Below are positions 13,096 to 64,000 of a stretch of 64,000 bases of DNA, piece after piece (the first letter of the stretch is position 1; every line of letters starts with the position of its first letter). The stretch covers positions 182,255-246,254 of the forward strand of contig JAHDPL010000020.1 in assembly GCA_018434355.1 (NCBI GenBank). The letters are read 5' to 3'. A model generated the notes under the pieces. That model was not told the origin of the DNA, did not search any database, and saw only the letters and a program-made list of their open reading frames with translations. Source of the stretch: Sporomusaceae bacterium. GTDB lineage: Bacteria > Bacillota > Negativicutes > UBA1444. Position numbers and translations under genes: made by a program.

Positions 13096-13195
13096 AACAA
13101 GCATCCCTCCTGACTTTTTTCCTGATTGGGGCGGGCAGTTCCGTTTCCTTTCCTGTCTACTCACACCTCCCCGCTTAATGTTCAACCACTATCTA

Positions 13196-13211
13196 TGCAA
13201 AAACAATGCCA
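13196..13211 (-). promoter_or_regulatory. Sigma-54 (-24/-12) promoter for the LeuCD-like operon
   Basis: Minus strand reads TGGCAT-tgttt-TTGCA, against the consensus TGGCAC-N5-TTGCA. It lies about 100 nt upstream of the start codon at 13095, and a sigma-54 activator gene is divergent from it. Confidence 0.7.
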
Positions 13212-43297: not shown

Positions 43298-43313
43298 TGC
43301 AAATAGCGTGCCA
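43298..43313 (-). promoter_or_regulatory. Sigma-54 promoter (perfect -24/-12 consensus) for the nicotinate-fermentation operon
   Basis: Minus strand reads TGGCAC-gctat-TTGCA, about 70 nt upstream of the ndhF start. Confidence 0.8.
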
Positions 43314-43633: not shown

Positions 43634-45214
43634 CTAGGACGATTCCAGGCCCATTTCCACCATTTTTCGCCACAAAGTCGTTGTACTGATTCCCAACAGG
43701 CGAGCTGTTTCCTGCCGCGATCCGCCGCTAGCTTTGAGCGCCCGCAAAACACAGTCGCGCTCAGTTGCCCGCACCGCCTCAGCCAGTGACAAAATCGTTT
43801 GTTTCGCTCCGGCCCCGCCATGACCGGCTTGCAAGTACTGCGGCAAATGCTCGATTTCGATGCAATTTTCATTGATACTGATCACATTCATCGCATACTC
43901 AATGCAGTTTTGCAGTTCCCGCACATTGCCTGGCCAGTTATGCAACTGAAAGCGTTTTCGGCACTCGCCCGAGACGCCCATGACAAACTTGCCCAGCAGC
44001 TTATTGTAACGATTGACAAACACGCGGATAAAATCCGGGATATCATCGAGTCGGTCGCGCAGCGGCGGCACTTTGATCTGCACAACATTGAGCCGGTAGT
44101 AAAGGTCTTCACGAAACTTGCCATTGCGGACCATATCCAGCAAATCACGATTGGTCGAGGCAATCACCCGGACATCGACCTGAATCGGCTTCGACCCACC
44201 GATACGGGTCACTTCGCGTTCCTGCAACACCCGCAGCAATTTGCTTTGCAATGTGAAATCCGTTTCTCCTAGTTCATCGAGAAAGATCGTTCCGCCATCG
44301 GCTTGTTCAAACGCGCCGGGATTGCCGCTTTTTTTCGCGCCGGTGAACGCGCCCTCATCATAACCGAATAGATAGCTCTCGATAATAGTTGCGGGAATCG
44401 CACCGCAATTAATCGCAACAAACGGCTTGCTGGCCCGGTCACTGGCGTTGTGGATGCTTTGGGCGAAAAGCTCCTTGCCGGTTCCAGTCTCGCCGGTGAT
44501 CAGTACGGACGAAACGCCCTTGGAAACATAGGAAGCCATATTGCTGACTTTTTTTATCGCCTCGCTGCTACCGACAATATCAGAAAAGCTGTAACGGGCG
44601 TACTGGAACTTTTTGAACTCCTCAATCAGTTTCTGCTGGCGCTGGACGCCGTGAAGGTTGTTGAAGCCAAAACCAAAGCGCTTGGTGATTGGAATCCTAA
44701 CCGCCACTGCGCCGATATCGGACATTGACTGGCCGATAACCGGTCGTTGCGTTTGCATCGCTTCCCTCGCCGCCACGCTGACTTTGCCAATGAATTTGTT
44801 TTCTTCGCCGGTCGGGTCATAGCTAGCTAAACGCTGGCCTTCCGCATCAAAAATGACCGCTTCGCCGCCGGCCACCCTGGCAATGAACGGCAATGCCTGT
44901 TTCAAAGATTCCTGTAGCTGATCGTCCCGCAACACCCGTTCCAAATTGCTGGCCGACAATACATAGTCGCCAATCGGTAAACTCCACGCTTCGGCGCTTT
45001 CAACAATTTGCGAAGGACCCGCCGTCAAAGTCCCGCTCTCAGAAGCCTGCCGGGCCAAGTCAAATACCAGCCCCTTCAATTCGGCGATCTCTTCCCCTTC
45101 GGAATCAACTGTTTTGATCCTTACACCGCAGCGGTCGGTTAGCGTCGCGTAGCCGCCGGTGATGCGGGCAATAATTGGCAATGCCTCCAGCAGCATCCGG
45201 GTCGAATTGTCCAT
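43634..45214 (-). CDS. Sigma-54-dependent transcriptional activator with a novel ~200-aa N-terminal sensor domain; candidate nic-cluster regulator
   Basis: 526 aa with AAA+ motifs [14 protein letters not shown] and ESYLFGY, and a C-terminal [16 protein letters not shown]. Immediately upstream of the sigma-54 promoter of ndhF. Confidence 0.85.
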
Positions 45215-49102: not shown

Positions 49103-52100
49103 CTACTCCCCGAACAGCCCTCGTATCTCAGCTTCCGTCATCTTGCCGATGAAGCTTTCGCCCGGCTGAATCAGCGAGTCAACCAGTTCGCGCTTGCGTT
49201 CCTGCAGCGCCAAGATTTTTTCTTCGATCGTGCCTTTGGCTACCAGTTTAAACACCTGCACCACATTTTTCTGGCCGATGCGATACGCCCGATCCGTCGC
49301 CTGATCCTCGACCGCCGGATTCCACCACGGGTCGCAGTGGATCACCATATCGGCACCGGTCAGATTCAGCCCTGCCCCGCCCGCCTTCAACGAAATCAGA
49401 AAGGCGTCCCGCTCGCCGCGGTTAAATGCGTTGACCCGCTGAATCCGGTCCTGGGCCGAGGTCCCGCCGTCCAGATAATGCCAGGATACCTCCAGTTCAT
49501 CCAGCACCGGTTTGATCAAATCAAGCATGCCGGTGAACTGCGAAAAGATCAGCAGACGGTGCCCCGCCGCCACCGCATCGCGGACCACATCGGCGATCAG
49601 TTCCATTTTGCCGCTGCCACCGCTGTAGTTTTCGACAAACAGCGCCGGGTGACAGCAGAGTTGCCGCAGGCGGGTCAAGATCGCCAAAATCTCGATTCGG
49701 CTCTGGTCAAATCCTTTGGTTTCGATTTCCTGTTCAAATTCCTGCCGCGCACTCATCAACCACGCCGTATAGAGCCGGGTCTGTTCTGCCGTCATCGGCG
49801 CGCTCAGCTGGCTCTCGATTTTTTCCGGCAGCTCCTGCAGCACGGTATGCTTCATCCGGCGCAGCAGGAACGGATGGATATGCCGCGACAGTTCGCGCAG
49901 CACCGGCGAGTTGGGGTCTTTGGCGACCGGCGCTTCAAACCGCTTGACAAACGAGGCGTGATGCCGCAGATAACCGGGCATGACATAATCAAAGATCGAC
50001 CACAGCTCGGTCAGCGAGTTTTCAATCGGCGTGCCGGTCAGCGCAAAGCAGCAACCGGCCCGAATCCGTTTCACGGCTTGGGCGTTCAGCGTCTGCGGAT
50101 TTTTTATATTTTGCGCTTCGTCGAGGAAGCAGGTTTTCCACTCCAGTTGTTCATACAGTTCGATATCGCGTTTCAGCAGCCCATAAGAAGTAATGACCAG
50201 ATCGACTGCCTCCAGGTCTGCAAGCGCGGCCTGCCGTTCCCCTTGTTGCCCGGTAACTACCAACGTGCGTAGCTCCGGTGTAAATTTGGCGGCTTCCTCC
50301 TGCCAGTTGTAGACGAGCGAAGTCGGCGCCACCACCAGCGACGGTCTCCCTTCTTGCCGCACCGACATCAGGTAGGCCAGCACCTGCAGCGTTTTTCCCA
50401 GGCCCATATCATCAGCCAAGATCCCGCCCATTCCATGACGGGCCAAGGCTTTCAACCATTTAAAGCCGGTCTTTTGATAGTCGCGCAGCGTGGCCTGAAT
50501 GCCGGCCGGTAGTTCATCTTCGCTATCCTGCGGTTCGCGCAGCTCCTGCAGCATGCGCCGGACGGCGCCGCTGCGCTCCACCACCAACGTTTCATTCATC
50601 CGGGCCAGGTTGTCCAGCGTCAGCGCCCGGTATTTGGGCAGACGGATCACCGCCTGTTTCATATCGGCCGCCGCCAGTCCCAGCTGTTCGACCAGTTGGG
50701 CCGCAGCCGCGAACTCCGGTTGGTCCAGTCCCAAAAATCTGCCGTCACCCAGGCGATGATAGCGTTTTTTCAGCCGATAGGCTGCCAGCAGTTCCTGTAG
50801 TTCCTCCGGCTGCAGGCCGCCGCAGTCCAGTGTCAGTTCCAGCCAGTCAAAGTCATCACTCAACCGAACCGCCGCCCTCACCCGCAGTTTGCGGTTCGAG
50901 TGCAACGCGGCGAATTCATCCGACAGGTACACTTCAAACTGGTCGAGCAGCTCCGGTAATCCTTCCTGAATAAAATCATAGGTAGCCTCTTCGTCCGGTT
51001 GCAGCAACGTTTCCCCCTGCGGCATAAACCGATGGTCAAGAAAAATTTGCAACAGACGCACCTCGGCCTGCGAGTCGCGCACCAGATAGCGGCCCGATTC
51101 ATCTACGGTCTTACTGCTGGTCGACAGGGCCGGGTTGATCACGATGTCGCCATAGCGAAACTCTACCCGTGCACTGACGCCCATTTCGTAGCGATCCAAA
51201 AATACCACAGCCGCCAGCGGTTCGCGATACAGTTTGTCGCGCACCGTTTCCGCCAACACGACTTCGCCGACAGTCTCCAGCGCCGGTAGCACGTCCGAAG
51301 CAAAATCGGACACCGAGGCTGGCGGCAGCAAAATCTCGCCTTGCCTGCCGTCACGGAAAGCCTGGCTCATCGGCGCAACTGCCTGGGAAAATTCCGCATC
51401 GACCTGATAAATCACGCCTTGATGATAAACATGACGCCAGTCCGCCTCAAGGCCGCACAGCTGCTCCGCCGGATCGGCGTAACGCAGCCGAAACCCGCCG
51501 GGATCACCATCAATCGCAAACCGTACCGACGGACGCCCCAATCGAACTGGTGTCGGTTCGGTCGGTCGGTACTGAATCGACGCCAGAACGGACTGATTCT
51601 GATACAACTGCAGAAACTCCGCCAATGAAGCCCGAGTCAGCCGAAACCGTCGTCCTGTCTCAAACACCGAAGCGCCGACGCCGGAGTAGGACCAACCGGC
51701 CCGTTCCTGTTCCTCGTCATAGGCCAGTTGCAACATGTGGAGCAGGTGCAGCGAAACCGTGTCAAGCTCCGACTGCGAACGCCGCAACGAACACTGTTTG
51801 CCCAGCACGATTTCCGCATCGGCCTGCCAGTCGCGCAAAAACTCGGGGATATTTTTCACCACATACAGTCGGTCGTTGCCCAGCGAAAACTCTAGCCAGT
51901 TCGCCCCTGCACCACGATGGCTGTCGTGCACATGGAACAGGGTCGGTTCCAGCCGCACCGCTTGTTTTTCCTTTTGCCGCAGACTTGGCGCCGGACGCAC
52001 CCGAAAATGCGCCAGCAATTGCTGCACCGAGGCGTTGGATCGATCTTCCGCGGGAACCCGTGGCGCTGGTGGCAAATATCTGGGCATTGCGCTGTCGCGG

Positions 52101-52402
52101 CTTACTTGCGGCGGGTAATAATTCCACCAGTCTCGTTGAATCGTTTTTAGCACAGCCACGATATGTTTGCAGGCCCCGTCAAATTTGGCAAAAGCCGGAC
52201 AATCGCAAAAATTGTGCAACACCTGTCCCGCTGTATCGAGTTTCAATTCTACGTAATACAGTTCGCCGCCGCGCACTTCCGCTTCAAAGGTGCCGGAGTC
52301 GCGCTGATGCAGTGTTTTTACGTTGCCGGCAAGATAATAGCTGCAACCTTTGCTGTATGCCGGTCCCGCCGCCAATTGCCGAATCGTGTTTTCCGTCAAC
52401 AT
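49103..52402 (-). CDS. SWIM-zinc-finger SNF2-family DNA-dependent ATPase/helicase (YwqA/RapA-like)
   Basis: Start taken at MLTENTIRQLAAG. The N-terminus has a SWIM motif (CDCPAFAKFDGACKHIVAV). The C-terminal SNF2 core carries a DEAQ box (FLDEAQNIKN), and helicase-C motifs. Confidence 0.85.
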   Translation of the reverse strand: MLTENTIRQLAAGPAYSKGCSYYLAGNVKTLHQRDSGTFEAEVRGGELYYVELKLDTAGQVLHNFCDCPAFAKFDGACKHIVAVLKTIQRDWWNYYPPQVSRDSAMPRYLPPAPRVPAEDRSNASVQQLLAHFRVRPAPSLRQKEKQAVRLEPTLFHVHDSHRGAGANWLEFSLGNDRLYVVKNIPEFLRDWQADAEIVLGKQCSLRRSQSELDTVSLHLLHMLQLAYDEEQERAGWSYSGVGASVFETGRRFRLTRASLAEFLQLYQNQSVLASIQYRPTEPTPVRLGRPSVRFAIDGDPGGFRLRYADPAEQLCGLEADWRHVYHQGVIYQVDAEFSQAVAPMSQAFRDGRQGEILLPPASVSDFASDVLPALETVGEVVLAETVRDKLYREPLAAVVFLDRYEMGVSARVEFRYGDIVINPALSTSSKTVDESGRYLVRDSQAEVRLLQIFLDHRFMPQGETLLQPDEEATYDFIQEGLPELLDQFEVYLSDEFAALHSNRKLRVRAAVRLSDDFDWLELTLDCGGLQPEELQELLAAYRLKKRYHRLGDGRFLGLDQPEFAAAAQLVEQLGLAAADMKQAVIRLPKYRALTLDNLARMNETLVVERSGAVRRMLQELREPQDSEDELPAGIQATLRDYQKTGFKWLKALARHGMGGILADDMGLGKTLQVLAYLMSVRQEGRPSLVVAPTSLVYNWQEEAAKFTPELRTLVVTGQQGERQAALADLEAVDLVITSYGLLKRDIELYEQLEWKTCFLDEAQNIKNPQTLNAQAVKRIRAGCCFALTGTPIENSLTELWSIFDYVMPGYLRHHASFVKRFEAPVAKDPNSPVLRELSRHIHPFLLRRMKHTVLQELPEKIESQLSAPMTAEQTRLYTAWLMSARQEFEQEIETKGFDQSRIEILAILTRLRQLCCHPALFVENYSGGSGKMELIADVVRDAVAAGHRLLIFSQFTGMLDLIKPVLDELEVSWHYLDGGTSAQDRIQRVNAFNRGERDAFLISLKAGGAGLNLTGADMVIHCDPWWNPAVEDQATDRAYRIGQKNVVQVFKLVAKGTIEEKILALQERKRELVDSLIQPGESFIGKMTEAEIRGLFGE

Positions 52403-52449
52403 TGAATAGTATCCCTCGTATTTCCATCTCAAAATAAAGCTTTCCCAAG

Positions 52450-52492
52450 TTATGCCCATGTTATGCGCAAGTTATCCACAGATTAATCCACA
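52450..52492 (+). promoter_or_regulatory. Array of four head-to-tail DnaA-box-like 9-mers at an 11-bp period
   Basis: The four boxes are ttatgccca, ttatgcgca, TTATCCACA (perfect consensus) and taatccaca. The array lies 50-90 bp upstream of the SNF2 helicase start. Confidence 0.5.
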
Positions 52493-52645
52493 GACCAGGA
52501 CTTCAACCCAATCGTTTCCACCAGTTCGCCAAAGTCCTCCAAACGTCGCTATTTCGACGTTAAATCGACTACGCTTCACCACGAACGTTCATCGGTCGCG
52601 GACCATCACCTTATTATTTCAGTGGATGCCTGTGCATAACTTTAT

Positions 52646-52693
52646 AAAAGGGGTTGCGGGCAAACTTATGAAAAGTTTTCCCCAACCCCTTCT
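52646..52693 (-). terminator. Putative terminator of the amino-acid-catabolic operon
   Basis: Stem aaggggttg/caacccctt with a long loop; the minus sense is followed by UUUUAU. Confidence 0.45.
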
Positions 52694-52740
52694 ATTATAC
52701 AGATATTATGACTGTCTACCTAGTTCGACTTTGGCAACAG

Positions 52741-54099
52741 CTATTCCCCTCGCTGTGCCAGGATTTTATGGTTGTACGGCGCCACTTTCGCGTACTCTGC
52801 TTCCCAGAACGCCTGGTCCTGCATGCTGTCCAGATAGGCCTGCGTGTAACCGAACTTCAGCCAGTCCGATTCTTTTTGGCGGAACAACCGCTGTTTTGCG
52901 GCGGGACGACGCACATCGTAGATGTGCTGTTCATCGGCCTGGATGAAAATATCCTGGGTCCAGCGGCTCAGCACATTCTCGGTCAGTTCCAGATACCGCG
53001 CGTTTAATTCTTCCAGCACCGAGTCGTAGCGGTCAAATCCGTCGGTGGCAATCGTCACCACATTGTCGCCAGGACCGAACCGCATGTGTTTGGCCAGTTT
53101 GATCGCGCCAATAATGTTGCAGATGCCCGAAGGTCCGACAGCATAAGTCAGGATTTTGGCCAGTGCGGGATCGATACCCATTTTCAGCAGCAAATCGGTC
53201 CCGTCATGAAACACTTTGACGCCCTGGACGGTTTCTTCGTCTTTGATCAGGATAATGAAATCGGTGGTCAGCACGTTGTGGATCAGCGTGCACATCTTGT
53301 CGCCGATCCCCTCGATCCGGTGCTGTCCCAGTCCGCCATTGGCGAGGGTAGAACACTCATACGGCTCCAGTGCGGCCACTTTTGCTTCAGGGAAAGCAAC
53401 TTTGATTTGGTCGCCAGCCGCCAAGGTCCCCGCCGAACCGGGAGCGGAGGTAAATCCGGCGATGCGGCCGTTGCCAACACCTTTTACCGCTTCGATGGCA
53501 CTGCCGCCGGTGACATGGCGATGGAAACGATAGTTGGCCATCAGTTCAAACTGGGCCAACGCTTTATTTTTCGGGTTCTTCATCATTTCATGGGTCCGTT
53601 CCAGCGTCAGGATGACATCAGACTCGGAACCCGGCGTCAACTCCAATTCGCCGCCGTATCTGCGAATCCGCTCGTAACGTTCCTTGCTCATGTTGTCCGG
53701 CATGATCACGACCGCCTTCAGGCCGAGCAGCTTGGAGATATAGGCAGTGCCAATACCGAAGTTGCCTGTCGAGGGGCCGAGAATCGTATGCTCCGCTGAG
53801 ATCTCGCCATCGACCAGGCCTTCGATCAACGTGCTGTATGCCGGCCCCACCTTGTGCGAGCCGGACGGGAATCCACACCCCAGCATAACCACGATATTGG
53901 CATCCACGCCGGTCAGCTCCGGTGGCAGCACAATCTTGCGCACTTTATTGTCGGCATCTTTCCAGTTGATATTGAAAAGATTGATTGGATCCATTTCATT
54001 GTCATGCAGTTGTTTCAGCGCCGTCGCACGCACATCCGGCGAGATTGTTTCAGGATGCAGCATTTCATCGTAAGTCGGTCCGAACGGAACCTTATTCAT
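52741..54099 (-). CDS. Fold-type-II PLP-dependent enzyme (cysteine-synthase/diaminopropionate-ammonia-lyase-like) with a ~100-aa C-terminal extension
   Basis: Start at MNKVPFGPTYDEM. Contains a PALP Lys motif region (GSHKVGPAYS) and a Gly-rich loop (GPSTGNFGIG). Confidence 0.7.
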   Translation of the reverse strand: MNKVPFGPTYDEMLHPETISPDVRATALKQLHDNEMDPINLFNINWKDADNKVRKIVLPPELTGVDANIVVMLGCGFPSGSHKVGPAYSTLIEGLVDGEISAEHTILGPSTGNFGIGTAYISKLLGLKAVVIMPDNMSKERYERIRRYGGELELTPGSESDVILTLERTHEMMKNPKNKALAQFELMANYRFHRHVTGGSAIEAVKGVGNGRIAGFTSAPGSAGTLAAGDQIKVAFPEAKVAALEPYECSTLANGGLGQHRIEGIGDKMCTLIHNVLTTDFIILIKDEETVQGVKVFHDGTDLLLKMGIDPALAKILTYAVGPSGICNIIGAIKLAKHMRFGPGDNVVTIATDGFDRYDSVLEELNARYLELTENVLSRWTQDIFIQADEQHIYDVRRPAAKQRLFRQKESDWLKFGYTQAYLDSMQDQAFWEAEYAKVAPYNHKILAQRGE

Positions 54100-54117
54100 C
54101 AAATTTCCCTCCAAGGT

Positions 54118-55326
54118 TTATTTGGTCAAAAACTGGGCGGCAATTGCCTGATAGCCGAGCGCAGCCTGCGTGACCTGGCTGATTTCGATGCTCTCATTCA
54201 CGACATGCGCTCCATCTTCGGCGCCCGGGCCGAAACCGATCGTCGGAATGCCAGCAATACCAGCGGAATAGCTGCCGTTGGTGCAAAAACTGTATTTTGT
54301 CACTTCCGGCGCCAGTCCGGCCCGCCGCGTGGCGGCCAGAGCTCCGGCGACAAGTGGATGGGACTCTGCCAGCACCCAGGCCGGAAAGAACCGTTTGCCG
54401 GCCATGACAGCCCCGGTATGACAAACCTGGCTTGCTTCCGCAATTTCAATCTCCGCTTCAAACTGCGGATCACGGCGTTTTAAGTCCTGAACGCACTGTT
54501 TCAATGGGGCCAGAACTGATTCCTCGGTCTCGCCGACCAACAATCGGCGGTCAAACGTCACCCGGCACTTGTGCGGCACGACTGACGCACCTGGATACGG
54601 CGCGGAAACAATGTCGGTCAGTTCCAGAATCCCCTCGCCCAAGAACGCTTCCTGCAAAACTGGCAGGGCGCGAATTGCGCTCACCAGTTCCAGCATCATG
54701 TACACGGCATTTTTGCCGACTGCGGGATTGGAAGAATGCGCCGCCTTGCCGCTGGTGGTCACCACGATTTCGGCCCGACCGCGTTGGCCGCGTTTCAAAT
54801 TCAGCGCCGAAGCTTCGCCAATCACGACAAAATCGGGCTTGATCGCATCCACGACCTTGGACAGGCCCAGCCCTTCGAACGTTTCTTCGCATACGGTACC
54901 GGACACAAACACCGAACCGGCCAGTTGGTCACGACAGGCTGCAAGTGAGGCAACGCCGCAAATCATCGCCGCCAGGGCGCATTTCATGTCACTGGCGCCG
55001 CGTCCATAAATCCGGCCATCTTTGATTATCCCCGCAAACGGCGGCACTGTCCAGTCCTCGGCATCACTGACATCCACCGTGTCCATGTGTCCGTCGAATA
55101 AAATCGCCGGCCCAACCGACACGCCCCTGATTTCGCCGATCACGTTGCCAAAGTCGTCGATCCAGGCCCGATCATAACCGAGCGCCAGCATTGTCTTTTG
55201 CAGTTCTTGAGCCAGGTCGCCTTCCGCCCCCGTATAGCTCTGCAACTGGATCATCCGCTGACACAGCGCGAGTAACCCCGCTTCATCCGGCGTCGCCAGC
55301 GCTATTTTTGCCTCTGATTGTCCCAT
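54118..55326 (-). CDS. M20-family metallohydrolase of the YgeY type
   Basis: 402 aa. Contains FDGHMDTV, GRGASDMK and the EETxEG motif (CEETFEGLG) typical of M20/DapE/YgeY. Confidence 0.8.
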   Translation of the reverse strand: MGQSEAKIALATPDEAGLLALCQRMIQLQSYTGAEGDLAQELQKTMLALGYDRAWIDDFGNVIGEIRGVSVGPAILFDGHMDTVDVSDAEDWTVPPFAGIIKDGRIYGRGASDMKCALAAMICGVASLAACRDQLAGSVFVSGTVCEETFEGLGLSKVVDAIKPDFVVIGEASALNLKRGQRGRAEIVVTTSGKAAHSSNPAVGKNAVYMMLELVSAIRALPVLQEAFLGEGILELTDIVSAPYPGASVVPHKCRVTFDRRLLVGETEESVLAPLKQCVQDLKRRDPQFEAEIEIAEASQVCHTGAVMAGKRFFPAWVLAESHPLVAGALAATRRAGLAPEVTKYSFCTNGSYSAGIAGIPTIGFGPGAEDGAHVVNESIEISQVTQAALGYQAIAAQFLTK

Positions 55327-55358
55327 ACTATCCCTCCCCCGGTAATCATCGCTTGCTG

Positions 55359-56951
55359 TTATCTTTTACGCAACACCCGTCCGGCTAGTGCGCCGGTTTC
55401 CCGGCCCTGGCTAACTGCCGCCACGCCATTCACAAACACGTACTCAATGCCTGAAGGATGCCTACACGGATCAATAAACGAATTGCCTTCCTGAATATTG
55501 GCGGCGTCAAACAATACCAAATCCGCTTTCGCACCGAGCGCAATCCGGCCGCGATCCCTCAGACCAAGCCTACGGACTGGACGACCGGTCATCCGTTCAA
55601 CAGCTTGCTCTAGTGTCAGCAATTTTTCTTCACGCACATAGCGAGACAAAATCCGCGCCGTCGAGGCATAGGCCCGTGGGTGCGGTTTGCCAATCAGGAG
55701 TCCATCGGTGCCGAGCATGCCGCGTGAATGCTTGATGATTTCGGCAACATCCGCCTCAGACATGCTGAAGTTCACCATCGAAACCTGCAGATTCTCTTGC
55801 AGCAGTAAATCGAACACGACTTCCTGCGGCGAAATTTTCCACTCATCAGCGATTGCGGTCAGTGACTTGCCTTCGCAGGCCTTGTTCGGGCCGCCGGGGA
55901 TGCCGGTTACGATCACGCCGTCCCAGCCGGCGGCGGTCGCGATATTTTCCCAGCCAGGCAGACCCTGCCTCATTTCTGCCGCCAGACGCTCGCGCATCGC
56001 CGGGTCGCGCAGGCGCTCCAGCAATTTTTCCGATCCACCGGCATGTGCATGTGGCGGCACCAGAATACTCAACATCGTACTGCCGGCAGGATAAGGATAT
56101 TGGTCGAAGGAAGCGTCCAGCCCCTCGTCAATTGCCATATCAAACAACTTCAACATCCGGCCCGCCGTACCCCAGTTTTCCTTGCCAATTACTTTCAGGT
56201 GGGAAATATGCGGGATCACGCCGGTTTTTCGCGCCAGATCAAAAATTTCACCGATCGATTCGACGACCAGACCGCGTTCGTTGCGCACATGCACGACAAA
56301 AAGTCCTTGGTTGCGGGCGCTGACCGAGGTCAACGCGACCAGTTCGTCAGACGCGGCAAAAATACAGGGAGGGTAAATCAATCCTGTAGAAAGGCCGAAC
56401 GCCCCCTGATCGTAACTCTGCTGCAATAAATCGCACATCCGGGCCAACTCCGCTGATGTCAGAGCACGTTCTTCCATTCCAGCTACGGCAATCCGCAGCG
56501 GTCCATGGCTGACCAACGCCGCCAGATTCGTCGCCGTACCGTCGCGCTGCAAACGGTCCAGATACTCACTAAAACTGCGCCAGGTCCAAGCCAGGTCGGG
56601 ATCGCCCAACAGACCCGACACATGCCGTCGGTAAGAGTCGATATGCCCATCGGTCAGCGGCGCTAACCCCAGACCGTCCTGTCCCAGCAATTCGGTCGTG
56701 ATACCTTGGCAAATCTTTGCGGCGGCCTGCGGTTTGACCATCTGCAACAAATCGGAATGACTGTGCATATCGATAAAACCCGGCGTCAACGTCAAACCCC
56801 GGGCATCGATCACCCGGGAAAAACTGCCGGTTTCCGCTGGAATCCGGCCAATTTCGCTGATCAGACAATCATTAACCGCCACATCGGCAACAAACGCTTT
56901 TTTACCTGTTCCATCAACAATCGAAGCCCCCTGGATCAGTAGACCGCTCAT
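55359..56951 (-). CDS. N-acyl-D-amino-acid deacylase (D-aminoacylase) family amidohydrolase
   Basis: 530 aa. Contains the HxH motif region PGFIDMHSHSD and has the Amidohydro_3 architecture. Confidence 0.8.
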   Translation of the reverse strand: MSGLLIQGASIVDGTGKKAFVADVAVNDCLISEIGRIPAETGSFSRVIDARGLTLTPGFIDMHSHSDLLQMVKPQAAAKICQGITTELLGQDGLGLAPLTDGHIDSYRRHVSGLLGDPDLAWTWRSFSEYLDRLQRDGTATNLAALVSHGPLRIAVAGMEERALTSAELARMCDLLQQSYDQGAFGLSTGLIYPPCIFAASDELVALTSVSARNQGLFVVHVRNERGLVVESIGEIFDLARKTGVIPHISHLKVIGKENWGTAGRMLKLFDMAIDEGLDASFDQYPYPAGSTMLSILVPPHAHAGGSEKLLERLRDPAMRERLAAEMRQGLPGWENIATAAGWDGVIVTGIPGGPNKACEGKSLTAIADEWKISPQEVVFDLLLQENLQVSMVNFSMSEADVAEIIKHSRGMLGTDGLLIGKPHPRAYASTARILSRYVREEKLLTLEQAVERMTGRPVRRLGLRDRGRIALGAKADLVLFDAANIQEGNSFIDPCRHPSGIEYVFVNGVAAVSQGRETGALAGRVLRKR

Positions 56952-58201
56952 CGCAAACCTCCCAGCGCCGCTTTCACCGCAGCTAGGGTCGGTTCGACAA
57001 AGTTGGGCGAGCCGGCGGCCTTCACCGCGGACTGAATATCTTTCAGGCCATTTCCGGTAACTAGTAGCGCCACTGTTTCATTGCCGCCAAGTATCCCCTG
57101 TGCCACCGCTTTGCGGATGCCAGCCACACCGGCCACACCGGCCGGTTCGCCAAATACGGCCGCTTTGCGGGCCAGCGTCGTGATTGAAACAAGAATTTCC
57201 GCATCCGGCACGCTGATAAACGCCCCGCCGGACTCGACAATTGCCTTCATGCCTTTTTGGAAATTTCGCGGATGACCGACGGCAATCGAATCGGCGATCG
57301 TGTTATCCTCGGTCGGCTCTAGCGGCGCACCGGTTTTCCAGGCAGTCAAAAAAGGCTGGCATCCCTCGGCCTGCACGCCGAGAATTTTCGGCAACCGCGG
57401 CAGGAAGCCGAGCTTGTGCATCTCGACCAACCCTTTCCAGACGCCGCCCACTGTGCAACCGTCGCCGACCGACACCACGACCCAGTCGGGACAGACTCCG
57501 CCGTATTGGCCGCGCAGTTGGTCAACCAACTCCAGCGAGACCGTTTTCTTCCCTTCGATCAAATAGGGATTGATTGCACAATTCCGGTTGTACCAGCCAA
57601 ATTCCGCTGCCGCTTCCATACACAGCTCCCATGCCTGATCATAAGTCCCCTTCACGGCAAAAACCCGGGCGCCAAATACCAGTAGTTGGGCTACCTTGGC
57701 CTGCGGGGCTCGTTCCGGCACAAAAATCGTCGCCGGCAATCCAGCCGCGGCCGAAAATCCAGCCAAAGACGAAGCTGCGTTACCGGTAGACGCGCAGGTG
57801 ATGCTGTTGGCGCCTTTTTCCAGCGCTTTGATTACTCCGAGCGAACTGGCCCGATCTTTAAATGAAGCCGTCGGGTTACGGCCTTCATCTTTGACAAACA
57901 AGCGAGCCACACCTAATTCGTCCGCAAGTCGCGCCGCATCGTACAGCGGCGTCCAGCCGACCTGCAGATGCTGTATTTTTGTTGTATCCTCGATCGGCAA
58001 TAACGGGAGATAGCGCCACATCGAAAAGGTGCGGCTGCCGGACAGCGCAGCCGGGTTGAACACTGTGGCCAAGGCTGCATAGTCGTATTCGACATCCAAA
58101 ATCCCGTCTTCGTAGCCGCAGGCAGGACAATAATAATCCACTTCCGTCACCGCATACTGCCGGTCGCAATGAATGCAGCGCAAGCCTGTCACATAACTCA
58201 A
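56948..58201 (-). CDS. Threonine-synthase-like fold-II PLP enzyme with an N-terminal zinc ribbon
   Basis: Zinc ribbon CIHC-x17-CPAC, followed by a ThrC-like core with the PLP-Lys motif (ASFKDRASS). Overlaps the downstream gene by 4 nt. Confidence 0.7.
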   Translation of the reverse strand: MSYVTGLRCIHCDRQYAVTEVDYYCPACGYEDGILDVEYDYAALATVFNPAALSGSRTFSMWRYLPLLPIEDTTKIQHLQVGWTPLYDAARLADELGVARLFVKDEGRNPTASFKDRASSLGVIKALEKGANSITCASTGNAASSLAGFSAAAGLPATIFVPERAPQAKVAQLLVFGARVFAVKGTYDQAWELCMEAAAEFGWYNRNCAINPYLIEGKKTVSLELVDQLRGQYGGVCPDWVVVSVGDGCTVGGVWKGLVEMHKLGFLPRLPKILGVQAEGCQPFLTAWKTGAPLEPTEDNTIADSIAVGHPRNFQKGMKAIVESGGAFISVPDAEILVSITTLARKAAVFGEPAGVAGVAGIRKAVAQGILGGNETVALLVTGNGLKDIQSAVKAAGSPNFVEPTLAAVKAALGGLR

Positions 58202-58217
58202 CCTGCCACCCCTTTTC

Positions 58218-58949
58218 TTAGTGCCGAATTCGTTTCAGAAATTGTTGGGTCCGTTCCTGCGACGGAGTTTCAAAAATATCCGCCGGGGTACCCTCTTCCA
58301 CAATTACGCCGCCATCCATGAAAATGACGCGGTCGGCCACATCTTTGGCAAACGCCATTTCATGGGTTACGACGACCATCGTCATGCCTTCGGTCGCCAA
58401 ATCTTTCATCACGACCAGTACTTCCCCCACCAACTCCGGGTCCAGAGCCGAGGTTGGTTCGTCAAACAGCAAAATCTTCGGATTCATCGCTAGCGCCCGG
58501 GCGATTGCCACCCGTTGCTGTTGCCCACCGGACAGTTCGCGCGGATAACTGTCTCTTTTATCCGCCAGCCCGACCCGGGTCAATAATTCTTCTCCTATTG
58601 TTTCGGCATCCGCCCTTGACATTCCTTTTACCACCAGCGGCGCTTCGACAATGTTTTCCAACGCCGTTTTGTGGGGAAACAGATTGAACCGCTGAAACAC
58701 CATGCCGATATGAGTTCGCAAGTCGCATAGATCGGTCTGTTCATCGACTTTCTTGCCTTCAAAAAAAATCTCGCCGGACTGGATCGGCTCCAGTTTGTTG
58801 ATACAACGCAGCACAGTGCTTTTACCCGAGCCACTTGGGCCGATGATGACGACTTTCTCACCTTCCAGCAACTGTATGTTGAAATCTTTCAGCACTTCCA
58901 CCGGACCGAATGATTTATAGACGTTCTTCATTTCTACAATATAGTTCAT
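58218..58949 (-). CDS. Polar-amino-acid ABC transporter ATP-binding protein
   Basis: Walker [10 protein letters not shown], the signature [15 protein letters not shown], and Walker [13 protein letters not shown]. Confidence 0.9.
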
Positions 58950-59599
58950 TGTCGCGCCATCTTCCTTTCCAGTCTGTCTGCGATGACCATAAACACCGAG
59001 TTCATGATCAGGTACAGCACCGCTACTGCCGTGTAGACTTCAAAACTGCGGAATGTCGTATAGATGATCTGCTCACCGGTACGGAACAATTCGGTAATCG
59101 TCACCAGCGAAGCGATCGAAGAATTTTTCAACGTCATGATAAATTGATTTACCAGCGGCGGAATACAGATTTTTGTCGCCTGCGGACCGATAATCCGCAC
59201 CATTGCCTGTCGAAAACTCATTCCCACCGACAACGCCGCTTCCATCTGTCCTTTGTCAACTGCCTGGATTCCGGCCCGGATGATTTCGGTAACATAAGCG
59301 CCGGTATTGATTGCCAAGCCCAGTACGCCGGCCACCATGCTCGGCAATTTGATGCCCAGCTGCGGCAGGCCAAAGTAGAGAATAAATAGTTGCACCATCA
59401 CCGGTGTTCCCCGGATGACCCACACATACATAAAAGCGATTGAATTCAGCGCCCGGTTGGAAGAAATTCGGCACAGCGCACCCGCTATGCCGAAGATCAT
59501 TCCCAACAACAGGGCGAAGAAGGAGATTTGAAGGGTGACCACGCACCCTTCAAGCAATATCGGAATCTTCGTCAATACAACTGAAAAGTCGAGATTCAT
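58946..59599 (-). CDS. Polar-amino-acid ABC transporter permease (HisM/GlnP type)
   Basis: 217 aa, five TM segments and an EAA-like loop. Overlaps the ATPase gene by 4 nt. Confidence 0.85.
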
Positions 59600-59623
59600 C
59601 AGCGTTCCCTCTTCCCCAAAACC

Positions 59624-60454
59624 TTATTTCGTTCCGATCAACCATTTCTTATACATTTTCTCCGCTTCGCCGGATTGTTTCAATTCTTTCAGCACAGCAT
59701 TCGTCAGGTCGAGCAGTTCCTTGTCGCCTTTTTTCACGGCGATTCCCAGTTGGGCTTTAGTGAACGGTTCGCCGACAATTTTCACATTCGGGTTGGCTTT
59801 GTTGTATTCCAACTGATTGAGCAAGTCATTGATCGCGGCGTCCAGACGACCATTTTGCAAGTCGAGCAAATAATCAACGGTTTCTTTATAGCTCTTGATT
59901 TCGATCTTGGCGCCTTTTTCTTTCATTTCCTGGGCTACTTTTTCGCTGGTGGCGCCGGTTTTTACACCGACCACTTTTCCGTCGAGGTCCTTGGTGCTTT
60001 TGATCGTGGTGTTATCTTTGCGGACCGCCAACACCATACCGGTATCCATATAGGGGTCGGCAAAGTCTACAACCTCTTTACGAGCCGGGGTGATATACAT
60101 CGCAGCGATCACCAGGTCGGCTTGGCCGTTTTGCAGCGTCGGAATCAGCCCAGTGAACTGCATTTCCTTAATTTCCAGCGGCACGCCGATTTTTTTTGCG
60201 ATGGCTTCGGCGACATCAATATCATAGCCGATGATTTTGTTGGTTTTTTCGTCGTGATATTCAAACGGGCGATAGTTGCCGGTCGCAAGAATTAGTTTGC
60301 CATTTTTCTTGATCTGGTCGATTCGGCTAACCGCCGCCGGTTTGGTCTCGGGTTTTGCTTCCGGTTTGGCCGGAGCGCTGCCGCAACCGGCGGCAACTAG
60401 GGCGAGCATTAACAGGGCGAGCAGCAGAGTCAGGTTTTTTTTCAGCATTTTCAT
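59624..60454 (-). CDS. Amino-acid ABC transporter substrate-binding lipoprotein
   Basis: Start at MKMLKKNLTLLLALLMLALVAAGCGS (lipobox). SBP_bac_3-like. RBS aaagaggga. Confidence 0.8.
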   Translation of the reverse strand: MKMLKKNLTLLLALLMLALVAAGCGSAPAKPEAKPETKPAAVSRIDQIKKNGKLILATGNYRPFEYHDEKTNKIIGYDIDVAEAIAKKIGVPLEIKEMQFTGLIPTLQNGQADLVIAAMYITPARKEVVDFADPYMDTGMVLAVRKDNTTIKSTKDLDGKVVGVKTGATSEKVAQEMKEKGAKIEIKSYKETVDYLLDLQNGRLDAAINDLLNQLEYNKANPNVKIVGEPFTKAQLGIAVKKGDKELLDLTNAVLKELKQSGEAEKMYKKWLIGTK

Positions 60455-60480
60455 TACAATCCCTCTTTCATTTATTTTTA

Positions 60481-60522
60481 TATAACAAAAAAGAGCCCAC
60501 GCATCGTGTGATGCATAGGCTC
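60481..60522 (-). terminator. Intrinsic terminator after the CdsB-like gene
   Basis: Two-tier GC stem gagcc-GCATC-gtgt-GATGC-ggctc, followed in the minus sense by UUUUUUGUU. Confidence 0.65.
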
Positions 60523-60650
60523 CATTGCCATCCGAAGACTGTTCGGGCAAAATCGCTGATATTATATTGCTGTTCTAGACCAAATTGTCTTGTATGGATG
60601 AAAATTTACCACATTCAACAGCAAAAAGCAAGCCGCTTTCCAAAAACTGT

Positions 60651-61952
60651 TCATGATACGGCTGGCGTTTTACTCTTTTCCAACATGATTTCCAGAATCA
60701 CTTTGTCGGTTTCAAGCATGCCCGGGCTGCTTACCATTCCCAAATTACGGATTGAATCATCCGTTGACTGAAAGATAATCCCGTTGCTGTCCGGTACCAG
60801 GACATTTTTCAGCGTCAACAGGGCCGTTTCAACCGCCACGCCGGCCGCTGTAGACAATTTCAGCGCACAGCCAACTTTGCCGCCATCGCAGATCATGCCG
60901 GTCAGATTGGCAATCATGTTTTTAATCGTTCCATCAATCTGTTCGCGACTGCCGCCCAGCATCCAGACAATGGCCGCACTCGCCCCGGTTGCCGCCGCCA
61001 CTGCGCAACCGCATAAGGCGGACAGGCTGCCGGTATAAGTTTTGATGTAAAGCGTCGTCAACGCGCTGATTGCCAGCGCCCGGTGCAACTTTTCCTGCGG
61101 CACGTTCAGTCGTTCCGCCACCGCCACTACCGGCAATATCGCAGTCAGACCATGGTTGCCGCTGCCGGCTACGCTCATCACCGGAACATTTTCGCCTGAC
61201 ATTCTCGCATCCGCCGCTGCTGCGGTGAGGATTTTCGCATACAACACCAGGTCGTCGGTGAGGATCTTTTCATTGATCATATCCTGAAAGTTTGCGCCGA
61301 TCGCCATGCCCAGACGCCCGTTCAACCCCGCCTGCGCTGCCGCCCGATTCATCCGGATGCTCTCGGCAAAAAAGGAAAACTCCTCGTCTGGCATTTCTTC
61401 CACCGCCGCAATTATTCCCGCTAGCGTAACTTCGGCGTTATTCATGATTGCCACGCTTTTTGCCGCGGCAGCAGCCGCTTTGCAGGAAAGGGTCTTTCCA
61501 TCACGCTCCAGCAGGATCAGATTGGTATGGCTACCATCAATTACTGCGCGGGCCGAGCTTGTGACACCGCTGACCTTGACCTCGATATGCAGTCCCTGAT
61601 GATCGTTCAATCGAATGTCGACCTTATCCCCGGCCAGCATCGTATCGGCCATCGTCAGCAATTCCGGCGTAATCCTGCTGAGCACCGACAATTCCAGCGC
61701 CGGTTCCTTGATCAGTGATCCCAAAGCAGCCGCAATCGCCAACCCGACCTTGCCGGTACCGGGAATGCCCACGGCAACTCCATTTTTATAAACGTTAGAA
61801 TCCACAGAGACTTCGACTTTTGTCGGAATCTCAGTCCCTAACGCCTGTCCGGCATAAGCAGCCGCCAGCGCTACAGCTCCTGGTTCAGTGCAACCAAGCG
61901 CCGGCTTGACCCCGGCCTGAATCAACGTAATCACTTCATCACGAAATTTCAT
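60651..61952 (-). CDS. YhaM/CdsB-family (UPF0597) Fe-S L-cysteine-desulfidase-like protein
   Basis: Start at MKFRDEVITLIQAGVKPALGCTEPGAVAL after an AGGAGG RBS. Contains the conserved SVAGSGNHGLTAILP motif. Confidence 0.8.
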   Translation of the reverse strand: MKFRDEVITLIQAGVKPALGCTEPGAVALAAAYAGQALGTEIPTKVEVSVDSNVYKNGVAVGIPGTGKVGLAIAAALGSLIKEPALELSVLSRITPELLTMADTMLAGDKVDIRLNDHQGLHIEVKVSGVTSSARAVIDGSHTNLILLERDGKTLSCKAAAAAAKSVAIMNNAEVTLAGIIAAVEEMPDEEFSFFAESIRMNRAAAQAGLNGRLGMAIGANFQDMINEKILTDDLVLYAKILTAAAADARMSGENVPVMSVAGSGNHGLTAILPVVAVAERLNVPQEKLHRALAISALTTLYIKTYTGSLSALCGCAVAAATGASAAIVWMLGGSREQIDGTIKNMIANLTGMICDGGKVGCALKLSTAAGVAVETALLTLKNVLVPDSNGIIFQSTDDSIRNLGMVSSPGMLETDKVILEIMLEKSKTPAVS

Positions 61953-61991
61953 GTTTTTTCCTCCTGACATGCATACTACATTCTATGCTTT

Positions 61992-62007
61992 TGCAAGATG
62001 CATGCCA
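61992..62007 (-). promoter_or_regulatory. Sigma-54 promoter for the CdsB-like gene
   Basis: Minus strand reads TGGCAT-gcatc-TTGCA, about 40 nt upstream of the start codon. Confidence 0.7.
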
Positions 62008-62056
62008 AAAAAAAGCGGTTGATTCGCTACAAATCAATCGCTTTTTCGTCACAATT

Positions 62057-62130
62057 TCTCATTTTGATTCAGTTGCTTTCTTGTAGTATCGCCAACAGGC
62101 CTAAAAATTAACTATTCTCATTTTGATTCA
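62057..62130. repeat. Two identical 15-mers tctcattttgattca 59 bp apart, plus a third partial copy at 62134-62144. Candidate enhancer sites
   Basis: Direct repeats about 60 and 120 bp upstream of the sigma-54 promoter. The distal copies overlap the last codons of the activator gene. Confidence 0.45.
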
Positions 62131-63950
62131 TCATTCTCATTTTGAGACGAATCAATTGAAATTTTATACTGCTTCAATTTCCGGTACAAAGTTGCCTTGC
62201 TGATTCCCAGCGCCTTAGTCAGTTGGGCTTTGCCGCGCATGCTCAGGCCAAATGTTTCGATTGCGTTCAAGATTGCGTTCTTTTCCAGTTCGGCGATCGT
62301 GAGCAGGCGATTCGGTTGCGCCTCAACCGCCGAACCCGGTCGCGCGGGTTTGCCGGCTATCATTATCCGCGGCGGGATGTGCCGCTGCTCAATAATTTTA
62401 CTGTCCGCAATACTGACCAGATATTCAATTGTATTCTCCAATTCGCGAATATTGCCGGGCCAGTCGTACTCCAGCAGACAAGCGTAAGCTCCGGAATCGA
62501 TGCTCTCGACGTTCTTCGCCATTTTTTCGCGATAACGTGCCAAAAAACGGTCGATCAACAAAGGCAGATCCTGCCGACGATCACGCAGGGCAGGAATCTG
62601 CAATGGAAAAACATTGATCCGATAGTACAGGTCCTGGCGAAACTCACCCTGGCGAACCATCGCCTCGATATCCTTGTGCGTAGCCGCGATAATCCGCACA
62701 TCAATTTCCGTGGTTTGCGTACTACCAACTCTTTCGATCCGTCTTTCCTGCAACACGCGCAAAAGTTTAGCCTGCAATGTCAGCGACATGTCGCCAATTT
62801 CATCAAGAAAGACCGTTCCGCCATCAGCCAGTTCAAATTTTCCGGGTTTGCCGCCGCGTCTGGCGCCGGTAAACGCCCCTTCTTCATAGCCAAACAATTC
62901 GCTTTCCAGCAAGGCTTCGGGAATCGCCGCGCAATTGATTGCAATGATCGGTTTTTCCCGCCTGGCGCTGGCATTGTGAATCGCACGGGCGAACAGCTCC
63001 TTGCCTGTTCCGCTTTCACCCAGTATCAGCACTGTCACGCTGCCGGTCGCCGCCTGCGTAGCTTCCTGTTTCGCCCTGGCCAAAGCAGGGCTTTCGCCAA
63101 GAATCATCTCAAAACTGAAGCAGTGTTCCTGGGTAGACAGATTGGAAACTATTTTTTTTACTTCGGCCATTTCCCGCAAAGTTACGACAGCACCCAAAAC
63201 TTCCGTCCCGCCCAACCAGGTTTTAACGGTTGCTACATAATAAACGCGCTGCCCCCGGATCAAGCGGAACGCTTCCCGATTAAAAACATCATGGCCGGTT
63301 GACAGACTGTCCGCCAACGGCAAGCCGGAAAGCAGAGCAGCCAATTCCTTGCCCATCACCGACTTCTGCGCAACTTGCAACATTTTCGCTGCCGCTGCGT
63401 TGATATTGACGATTCGTCCGTTACGATCTACTGCGACAATTCCTTCCTGCACCGTATCAAACAAGGTCGTCAGTTGCTGCTGGATGGCATGCAGTTGTTC
63501 CAGCCGTTCTCGCCCGGCGATCTTGCCGGCCAACAAATCCGCCATTCGCTGCAAAAAATCAAATAATCCCTCAGGGTTCGCCAAGAGAATCCGATATTGC
63601 GTCTCATCGCAGGCAATCAGAGCAATCACGCCGATCACCTGGCCGTCCAGCATGATCGGGCAACAGACCTCGGCCCGCTCCTCACAGCTTTGTTTGCCTT
63701 CGCAGGTATTGCAGACCTGATGTTCGCGCGGATTCGCAATGATAAATCCGCGGCCTTCCCGCAACACTGCAGCAAAAGCCGAGTCCTTCACCAGGCGGTC
63801 ACCAATTTTTCCCGCATAACGCCCGGTTCCGGCAATGCGATGCAAGCGTTCATCGGCAATCGTCACTTCCACCGTCAGAACACTGGCAATCGCTTCTGCC
63901 ACTTGCTGCACATCGAGTTGGTTCTTGTTCAGAAAGGTATCCTGCAACAT
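62118..63950 (-). CDS. Sigma-54-dependent activator with N-terminal GAF and PAS sensor domains (Fis-family HTH)
   Basis: 610 aa. The sensor has a Cys cluster ([19 protein letters not shown]). AAA+ motifs [14 protein letters not shown] and ESELFGY are present, and the C-terminus carries an HTH ([13 protein letters not shown]). Confidence 0.85.
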
Positions 63951-64000
63951 GGTTTCCCTTATGCTCCCTTGTTAAAAAATCACGAGTCAGGCTTTTTCCA

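Follow-up and report, generated by a model that had tools for sequence, protein, structure and literature searches.

What pathway is served by an operon that joins a polar-amino-acid-type ATP-binding cassette (ABC) importer to two hydrolases and two pyridoxal 5'-phosphate (PLP) enzymes resembling threonine synthase and cysteine synthase? This question is raised by positions 52,741 to 63,950 of a 64-kb stretch of a Sporomusaceae bacterium genome (GCA_018434355.1, contig JAHDPL010000020.1), hereafter the window. An initial annotation had proposed that the operon takes up and breaks down an unusual amino acid, and this general view is upheld here. Our own reading, which we hold with a little more confidence than doubt, is that the operon encodes, as a self-contained module, the lower part of the anaerobic reductive uric-acid (2,8-dioxopurine) pathway, together with a ureido importer and with a pair of PLP enzymes replacing diaminopropionate ammonia-lyase (DpaL, also called YgeX).

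The steps of the anaerobic urate pathway were resolved as recently as 2025, and gout and hyperuricaemia are the reasons for which it is being pursued. It opens with reduction of urate to 2,8-dioxopurine, which is dearomatised before SsnA opens the ring; the product of HyuA is 2,3-diureidopropionate (PMC12507026; PMC12990295). The 2-ureido group is removed to give albizziin either by YgeW or, in Clostridioides difficile, by the D-aminoacylase homologue UacY; the 3-ureido group is then cleaved off by YgeY, which leaves 2,3-diaminopropionate for conversion to pyruvate by YgeX (PMC12507026). Intermediates have been recovered from the culture supernatants of pathway mutants, and so can leave cells. 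Set against this scheme, the importer of the window would take up a ureido derivative of 2,3-diaminopropionate, most likely 2,3-diureidopropionate, with albizziin and 3-amino-2-ureidopropionate as alternatives. By analogy with C. difficile UacY (CdUacY) and YgeY, the amidohydrolase would hydrolyse the 2-ureido group and the M20 hydrolase the 3-ureido group, yielding 2,3-diaminopropionate. The two PLP enzymes would jointly convert this product to pyruvate and ammonia, the job done by DpaL in Escherichia coli, C. sporogenes and C. difficile.

With the E. coli genes (ygeW-ygeX-ygeY-hyuA-yqeA and ygfK-ssnA-ygfM-xdhD) and the C. difficile variant carrying UacX and UacY (PMC12507026; bioRxiv 10.1101/2025.04.24.650524), the window shares a UacY-type amidohydrolase and a YgeY-family M20 hydrolase. 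Unlike those clusters it has no reductase, and its 64 kb hold no SsnA, HyuA, UacX/YgfK, uricolytic XdhD or urate permease, the only Xdh-type genes being subunits of a nicotinate hydroxylase. YgeX is also missing; the window adds an ABC importer and has the two PLP enzymes instead.

Operon layout and its uricolytic relatives

Open reading frame (ORF) listing and profile searches recovered all nine genes of the initial annotation and confirmed its gene calls, family assignments and minus-strand positions, with gene starts adjusted from a 154-kb public contig identical to the window (L001; our loci are numbered with the prefix L). The genes form two transcription units: a sigma-54-dependent activator with a cyuA-like gene, and a separate 7.7-kb operon running from the substrate-binding protein (SBP) gene to the last PLP gene (60454 to 52741, minus strand). 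Intergenic gaps of 24, -4, 25, -4, 32 and 18 nt make a single operon credible, as the initial annotation had it, and strong hairpins lie at both of its ends. In order of transcription, and all on the minus strand, the operon encodes an SBP_bac_3 lipoprotein (59624-60454), a BPD_transp_1 permease (58946-59599), an ABC_tran ATPase (58218-58949), a ThrC-like PLP enzyme of fold type II with an N-terminal Zn ribbon (56948-58192), a UacY-type amidohydrolase of the N-acyl-D-amino-acid deacylase family (55359-56951), a YgeY-family M20 hydrolase (54118-55326) and a 452-residue CysK-like PALP enzyme that we call P451 (52741-54099), for which cysKM is the best model, with a score below the cutoff. A terminator-like hairpin read from the sequence closes the operon at 52646-52689 (minus strand; -29.7 kcal/mol, z = -6.3).

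We compared this arrangement with two sets of loci. The first holds 80 species-level genome loci picked by P451 (L007-L086), with ORFs classified against the window, the uricolytic clusters of relatives and the E. coli K-12 yge/ygf region; 58 of them extend at least 6 kb on each side and are called well flanked below. The second holds 42 metagenome loci scanned with an SBP alignment. On curated hidden Markov models (HMMs), the reference cluster genes scored above cutoff for SsnA (635 bits, cutoff 444), D-hydantoinase (615, 393), selenium-dependent xanthine dehydrogenase (1353, 830) and YgeY (582, 321.5).

P451 keeps close company with uricolytic genes. At least one (scored as SsnA, UacX/YgfK, XdhD, HyuA, YgeY, YgeW/YqeA or UacY) is present in 54 of the 58 well-flanked loci, and 48 carry a gene of the upper pathway. 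The ThrC-like gene is found in 53 of the 58, and, with truncated contigs and a single frameshifted copy discounted, four loci truly do without it. Orthologues of all four window enzymes occur in uricolytic clusters of Acidobacteriota, Negativicutes, Moorellaceae, Clostridia and Erysipelotrichaceae. The ThrC-like gene and P451 lie inside full clusters in a Terracidiphilus-like genome (L003) and an acidobacterial one (L006), and the cluster of Sporomusa carbonis reads SsnA, regulator, UacX, ThrC-like, P451, HyuA, XdhD, M20, UacY. Pelosinus fermentans has an E. coli-type cluster with a DpaL 51% identical to YgeX. The initial annotation had set its proposal against a standard ygeW-ygeX-ygeY-hyuA purine-catabolic island; the genes do in essence belong to that kind of system, in its C. 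difficile-like form, where the place of the carbamoyltransferase is taken by UacY (PMC12507026). A complete uricolytic cluster, with 76-93% identity to those of acidobacteria, also stands on a contig labelled Candidatus Saccharimonadales (DATLJC010000078.1, L024); an SsnA match (P0207) bears the same label, and a mis-binned contig is likely.

Both hydrolases can be placed within this pathway by subtype. The amidohydrolase finds its best match in the Protein Data Bank (PDB) in 3GIP/3GIQ (246 bits), which is also the structural relative used to model CdUacY. Its nearest solved relatives are N-acyl-D-amino-acid deacylases (Bordetella 3GIQ, Alcaligenes 1M7J), and it retains their metal-binding and catalytic residues (His-x-His, His, His and Asp). 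In contrast to the deacylases, the Cys ligand (GNCG) is replaced by Asp (GQDG) in all 33 UacY-class proteins; the signature of HSHSD plus GQDG is common to these 33, which include the window protein and copies beside SsnA, UacX and XdhD. On this analogy we predict a 2-ureido (N-alpha-carbamoyl) hydrolase, with an N-carbamoyl rather than an N-acyl substrate. The D- or N-acyl amino acid of the initial annotation was accordingly close, N-carbamoyl (ureido) derivatives of 2,3-diaminopropionate being the likelier substrates. The M20 protein scores 443 bits on the YgeY family model NF009555 (cutoff 321) and is 53% identical to the M20 proteins of the L006 and Sporomusa clusters, the former having the same score profile; we predict, again by analogy, a 3-ureido hydrolase giving 2,3-diaminopropionate. 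Across L007-L086, M20 proteins of the window type always occur with UacY (14 loci) and those of the E. coli type always with a YgeW-like carbamoyltransferase (35 loci). Both hydrolase sets surround the ABC genes in L009 and L010.

The ABC-coupled form recurs outside the window. Anaeroselena agilis (L005) has the same stand-alone ABC operon, and the order SBP, permease, ATPase, ThrC-like, UacY, M20, P451 is common to the window, L005, L008-L011, L090 and L096. A minimal unit of ABC genes, M20 and UacY stands between unrelated flanks in L109, L111 and L112, which links whatever is transported to the two ureido hydrolases. DpaL/YgeX is found in none of the 80 P451 loci. Among the 42 metagenome loci, eight with an orthologous SBP (50-82% identical) have the order DpaL, M20, UacY, SBP, permease, ATPase, and their DpaL proteins score 629-669 bits on TIGR03528 (cutoff 532). 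DpaL and the PLP pair occur together in no locus examined. This swap within an orthologous module suggests that the pair takes the functional place of DpaL.

The PLP pair as a proposed substitute for DpaL

What, then, are the two enzymes that would take this place? Like DpaL they are PLP enzymes of fold type II, and a module carries either DpaL or the pair. Unlike it, two proteins stand for one, and both are far under the relevant model cutoffs: on TIGR03528, P451 scores 24 bits and the ThrC-like protein does not reach the model, scoring 62 bits on NF006058 (cutoff 276).

The ThrC-like protein scores 210 bits on the thrC equivalog model TIGR00260 (cutoff 167) and 288 on NF006050 (cutoff 303), and is 69-73% identical to the copies in uricolytic clusters. 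It shares with threonine synthases (PDB 2ZSJ, 1UIM, 2D1F) the fold, the SFKDR lysine motif and the STGN loop, and the PLP lysine and STGN are invariant across 71 orthologues. It differs from them in its N-terminal Zn ribbon (CxxC...CxxC, formed by C9/C12/C25/C28), its catabolic genomic context and its phosphate site. Aligned to Aquifex ThrC (2ZSJ, 232 bits), the Thr of STGNT is Ala, the Arg of NPxR is Leu or Met and the GNAGN loop is GDGCT, each in 71 of 71 orthologues. We take that Thr, Arg and loop to be the residues that bind the phosphate of O-phosphohomoserine in the structures of Thermus thermophilus ThrC, and their replacement throughout the family argues that the ThrC-like protein is not a threonine synthase.

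P451 is a family of its own, whose members in Negativicutes, Acidobacteriota, Moorellaceae and Erysipelotrichaceae are 69-80% identical, with at least 549 matches in species-representative genomes, among them rumen and gut Erysipelotrichaceae, Moorella, Negativicutes and peat Acidobacteriota. Its best CysK and CysM scores are 133 and 131 bits (cutoffs 344 and 351), and it is longer than CysK/CysM (about 300 residues) by about 60 N-terminal and 90 C-terminal residues. P451 retains what catalysis requires: the PLP lysine K83, the Asn loop S110-T-G-N113, Q183, the phosphate loop G221-S-A-G-T225 and S324 at the pyridine N are invariant in 29 sequences. An AlphaFold2 model of moderate confidence (predicted TM-score 0.83, pLDDT 74) was placed by Foldseek in the CysK/beta-substituted alanine synthase fold, with a template modelling (TM) score of about 0.75 on the target. 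Nearest structures were beta-cyanoalanine synthase, CysK, S-methylcysteine synthase, H2S-producing Fn1220 and O-ureidoserine synthase, and DpaL was not among the 50 best listed matches; the fold is a generic one, giving no clue to the substrate or to the role of the extensions. P451 thus shares its core fold and its PLP- and carboxylate-binding motifs with CysK, beta-cyanoalanine synthase and the O-ureidoserine synthase DcsD, but differs in identity (about 27%), in the terminal extensions and in a lysine motif that reads SHKVG, not SVKDR.

How the pair would divide the work can be pictured in several ways. Of 70 loci, 46 have the two genes side by side, but separation is frequent, so that an obligate complex is not indicated. 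One possible scheme is replacement of the beta-amino group to give serine or cysteine, followed by elimination. Another, considered because the pathway intermediates have been proposed to be D-configured (PMC12990295), is that each PLP enzyme serves one enantiomer; a racemase together with a lyase is a third possibility. A gene for a single-chain Fe-S L-serine dehydratase lies in or beside the cluster in eight of the 80 P451 loci (L019, L063, L068, L070, L077, L078, L080 and L086) and also in L006, and in L063 it stands between the two PLP genes. These embedded genes may hint at a serine intermediate. Genes of the cyuA type likewise lie beside the pair in the window and its closest relatives.

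A more far-reaching idea, which we would sooner doubt than assert, is that the pair is an unrecognised and widespread two-enzyme alternative to DpaL, perhaps acting through beta-replacement to serine or cysteine and elimination, and that its ABC-coupled form feeds bacteria without the upper pathway on diureidopropionate or albizziin released by uricolytic neighbours. Should the pair replace DpaL, many uricolytic clusters would end in uncharacterised chemistry, and surveys that use ygeX as a marker would overlook them. The ABC-coupled lower module likewise suggests exchange of pathway intermediates across species. In the searchable literature, no paper pairs threonine-synthase-like or cysteine-synthase-like proteins with these genes. 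A published neighbourhood survey scored 'YgeX' as the generic PALP domain PF00291, which makes DpaL indistinguishable from the pair. The initial annotation called the whole system undescribed; this appears to hold for the PLP pair and for the stand-alone ABC-coupled module, neither being described in searchable papers, and the rest belongs to a known pathway. Routine annotation would probably name the ThrC-like protein 'threonine synthase', and relatives of P451 are labelled 'cysteine synthase' or 'cysK', both names being probably wrong. Among cultured strains, Anaeroselena agilis carries the ABC module, and a full cluster that includes the pair is present in Sporomusa carbonis.

Importer ligand and competing explanations

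The SBP, permease and ATPase all score under every NCBIfam equivalog cutoff (glutamine, cystine, arginine, histidine and ectoine), the nearest models being cystine permease for the permease (206 bits, cutoff 300) and GlnQ for the ATPase (341 bits, cutoff 379). The SBP has the lipobox AAGC and keeps an Arg and an Asp that we presume to be the backbone-binding residues of GlnH/ArtJ-type amino-acid receptors. Their retention favours an amino-acid-like ligand without identifying it.

Several points weigh against a self-contained ureido module. On the side of the substrate, the SBP Asp would normally bind a free alpha-ammonium group and so seems to fit albizziin or diaminopropionate better than diureidopropionate, and orthologous ABC genes stand beside SsnA or Xdh in L117, L101 and L095, so that a purine substrate is possible. 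The upper pathway may also lie elsewhere in the genome, and the cargo of the importer would then not have to be an intermediate. As to the hydrolases, the tie between the amidohydrolase and C. difficile UacY (Q181U6) comes from the subfamily signature and synteny, and the M20 protein is just 32% identical to E. coli YgeY and falls under the TIGR03526 cutoff (279 bits, cutoff 321.5). The pair, for its part, occurs alone in Anaerospora and in a Sporomusaceae metagenome-assembled genome (L021/L026), and in Lucifera butyrica (L025; NZ_UPPP01000061.1, 1493-12853) it sits in a non-uricolytic operon together with a sigma-54 activator, an oxidase set of Pyr_redox_2, Fer4 and DAO proteins, an aldehyde dehydrogenase and a branched-chain-type Peripla_BP_6 binding protein. 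The Lucifera setting suggests another source of substrate for the pair, so that this substrate would not be exclusive to urate breakdown. DpaL, moreover, could lie more than 10 kb away in genomes that bear the pair.

Some of these points lead to a different account, with the same enzymes and pathway, in which the operon covers no more than the last steps of a full uric-acid route whose upper genes (Xdh, UacX/YgfK, SsnA, HyuA) are located in another part of the genome, and the importer brings in urate, another purine or a general nitrogen source. We regard this as unlikely, although in L117 the ABC genes form one co-directional array with DpaL, M20, UacY, a GuaD-like gene, SsnA, UacX and Xdh with no purine permease in view; XdhD adjoins the module in L101 and SsnA in L095, and the Negativicutes Sporomusa carbonis and Pelosinus fermentans hold full clusters. 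In a search for SsnA, the named matches included Sporomusa and Pelosinus, and neither Anaeroselena nor the clade of the window was among them. Against the sub-operon account, the ABC genes are most tightly linked to UacY and M20 (L109, L111, L112), and no upper-pathway gene lies within 10 kb of the module in the window, L005, L008-L011 or L096. Import of a purine fits poorly with the amino-acid backbone Arg and Asp of the SBP, and full clusters that carry the pair use a Xan_ur_permease instead. Distinctly less probable is a salvage of the hydantoin type with no link to urate, in which the module would handle N-carbamoyl or N-acyl D-amino acids at large: the amidohydrolase and the M20 protein would deacylate N-blocked amino acids after import, and the PLP enzymes would deaminate the serine-, threonine- or cysteine-like products. 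The amidohydrolase is indeed nearest to N-acyl-D-glutamate deacylases and D-aminoacylases, the M20 protein is of the ArgE/DapE deacylase type, and the pair is found outside uricolytic contexts (L021, L025, L026); yet both hydrolase subtypes and the pair recur with SsnA, UacX, XdhD and HyuA in several phyla, and since the pair is interchanged with DpaL, the product indicated is specifically 2,3-diaminopropionate.

The initial annotation had itself favoured sulfur or selenium chemistry, reading the locus as one sigma-54 module that either breaks down an amino acid containing sulfur or selenium or supplies these elements in labile form to the nicotinate hydroxylase. We think this very improbable, even though the operon has as neighbours a Cys-rich activator and a cyuA-like desulfidase gene under a sigma-54 promoter, a rhodanese gene lies just past the window in L001, P451 has the cysteine-synthase fold, and a sulfide-dependent beta-replacement followed by desulfidation can be imagined. 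The operon enzymes track uricolytic and not sulfur genes, a strong terminator and the operon's own conserved promoter split the two units, and the activator-cyuA pair is present in just L001, L011 and L089 of about 20 module loci. The selenium association of YgeY reflects co-occurrence with the selenium-dependent xanthine dehydrogenases of the pathway and is no sign of such chemistry. Nor is the link to the nicotinate hydroxylase supported: the nic cluster is real, but six unrelated genes lie between, and relatives carry the module without it. To purely biosynthetic roles, with the ThrC-like protein a threonine synthase, P451 a cysteine synthase and both of them chance neighbours of the hydrolases, we give almost no credence. 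The TIGR00260 score above cutoff and the 'cysteine synthase' labels of P451 relatives speak for such roles; the ThrC phosphate residues are, however, replaced in all 71 orthologues, P451 falls far under the CysK and CysM cutoffs and has long extensions, and both occur in catabolic clusters of at least four phyla. We retain the lower-module reading, in which the ligand of the importer would be a ureido derivative of 2,3-diaminopropionate.

Promoter, leader and the neighbouring activator-cyuA unit

Is the operon under sigma-54 control, as had been proposed for the whole locus? For the ABC operon this part of the proposal is not supported. Its candidate sigma-54 promoter at 60627-60642 (GG-N10-GC) has one mismatch, and L005 and L008-L010 lack the -24 GG. 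A sigma-70-type promoter-like element at 60603-60632 (minus strand; -35 TTGCTT, 17-nt spacer, extended -10 TGgTAAATT) is kept in six relatives despite a differing upstream gene, and is seen again in L088, L089, L092 and L093. We rejected the sigma-54 promoter because its -24 GG is unconserved while the sigma-70-type -35 and -10 are conserved; a hairpin and this promoter also separate the operon from the upstream unit.

Between the promoter and the SBP gene lies a leader unit (60482-60529, minus strand) that combines a GGCAATGGAGCC motif with a GC-rich hairpin of 14 bp and a U-tract; about 30 nt separate it from the ribosome-binding site of the SBP gene downstream. In a terminator scan the hairpin (60492-60523) has a free energy of -29.1 kcal/mol and z = -7.9, and of its 14 pairs conserved in relatives, four show compensatory changes. 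The leader motif occurs once in the window and is found at the SBP leader in 17 loci. Over the whole leader (60482-60632) the architecture is a sigma-70-type promoter, one or two tandem units with GGCAAWGRNGCC, a -10-like AT box and a ribosome-binding site; in each tandem unit, GGCAAWGRNGCC is followed by a hairpin whose outer stem is conserved and whose inner stem is free, and then by a U-tract. The leader also precedes the SBP gene in L005, L008-L011, L088-L093, L095, L096, L098, L100, L101, L105 and L116. Judged by its form, the unit at 60482-60529 would be an intrinsic terminator or attenuator, and the leader as a whole could act as an attenuator, as an antitermination target, or as an upstream terminator followed by a second promoter. 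A known riboswitch was rejected, there being no Rfam match at E <= 1 within 52000-64000. An ANTAR-type dual hairpin was also set aside: GGC-AAWGRN-GCC fits the hexaloop (A1, G4), but no conserved first hairpin was seen. A leader peptide starting at ATGGCA was likewise dropped, neither the ATG nor the reading frame being conserved. Some relatives (L005, L094, L095, L096, L098, L101 and L102) have a palindrome, TAATAAGGC-N3-5-GCCTTATTA, over the -10-like box about 25-50 nt upstream of the SBP start. A gene for a helix-turn-helix (HTH)-cupin regulator lies in or beside the operon in L005, L096 and L117; the group of the window has neither this regulator nor the full TAATAAGGC/GCCTTATTA palindrome.

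For the cyuA-like gene (60651-61952, minus strand), the sequence does support sigma-54 control. An exact -24/-12 promoter, TGGCATgcatcTTGCA (61992-62007, minus strand), lies about 40 nt upstream of its start codon and is the sole exact sigma-54 promoter in the module region. The product matches E. coli CyuA over its full length (39% identity over 430 residues, E = 3e-80; PF03313, SDH_alpha, 195 bits), by which it is an Fe-S L-cysteine desulfidase homologue. The adjoining activator (62118-63950, minus strand) combines GAF/PAS, sigma-54 AAA+ and HTH domains (Pfam PAS, GAF_2, HTH, and Sigma54_activat at 246 bits); its best NCBIfam match is PrdR, at 428 bits under a cutoff of 795, and its cysteines C80, C83, C89, C96, C97 and C114 are clustered in the GAF-like sensor domain. 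It is 39% identical to the activator within the Pelosinus uricolytic cluster. We did not retain it as a YgeV orthologue, since its 34% identity to E. coli YgeV is within the range for other families of bacterial enhancer-binding protein (bEBP). Three exact copies of TCAAAATGAGAA (62056-62145, minus strand) lie 50-140 nt upstream of TGGCATgcatcTTGCA and are the only three matches in the window, a number reached in none of 100 shuffles; they are candidate binding sites for the activator. Taken together, the activator, the TCAAAATGAGAA repeats, TGGCATgcatcTTGCA and the cyuA-like gene look like a self-contained cysteine- or sulfide-responsive unit. It shares with the E. coli CyuA (YhaM) system and YgeV/PrdR-type bEBPs full-length similarity to CyuA, the usual bEBP architecture and an exact -24/-12 element; in contrast to that system, cyuA is here its own transcription unit, tied to the ABC operon only in the closest relatives (L001, L011, L089). 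The terminator hairpin, the separate conserved promoter and this restricted pairing led us to treat activator and cyuA as a cysteine-desulfidase unit distinct from the operon. Directly upstream of the activator, L001 has rhodanese and cupin genes (1-1321, just past the end of the window).

Other features of the window lie towards its nic side. A cluster for nicotinate fermentation of the Eubacterium barkeri type spans 24.7-43.2 kb, with an exact sigma-54 promoter, TGGCACgctatTTGCA (43298-43313, minus strand), directly upstream of the nicotinate hydroxylase genes and another sigma-54 activator (43634-45214, minus strand) adjoining that promoter; the cluster thus appears to be under sigma-54 control. 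A helicase with SWIM, SNF2_assoc and SNF2 domains (49103-52402, minus strand) lies between the module and the nic side, its best NCBIfam match being 'pilus expression-regulating Snf2 family helicase' (591 bits, cutoff 1100). The genes flanking the module differ in L009, indicating that the region has been rearranged among relatives. A third exact sigma-54 match, TGGCATtgtttTTGCA (13196-13211, minus strand), stands just upstream of an ORF at 11836-13185 (minus strand).

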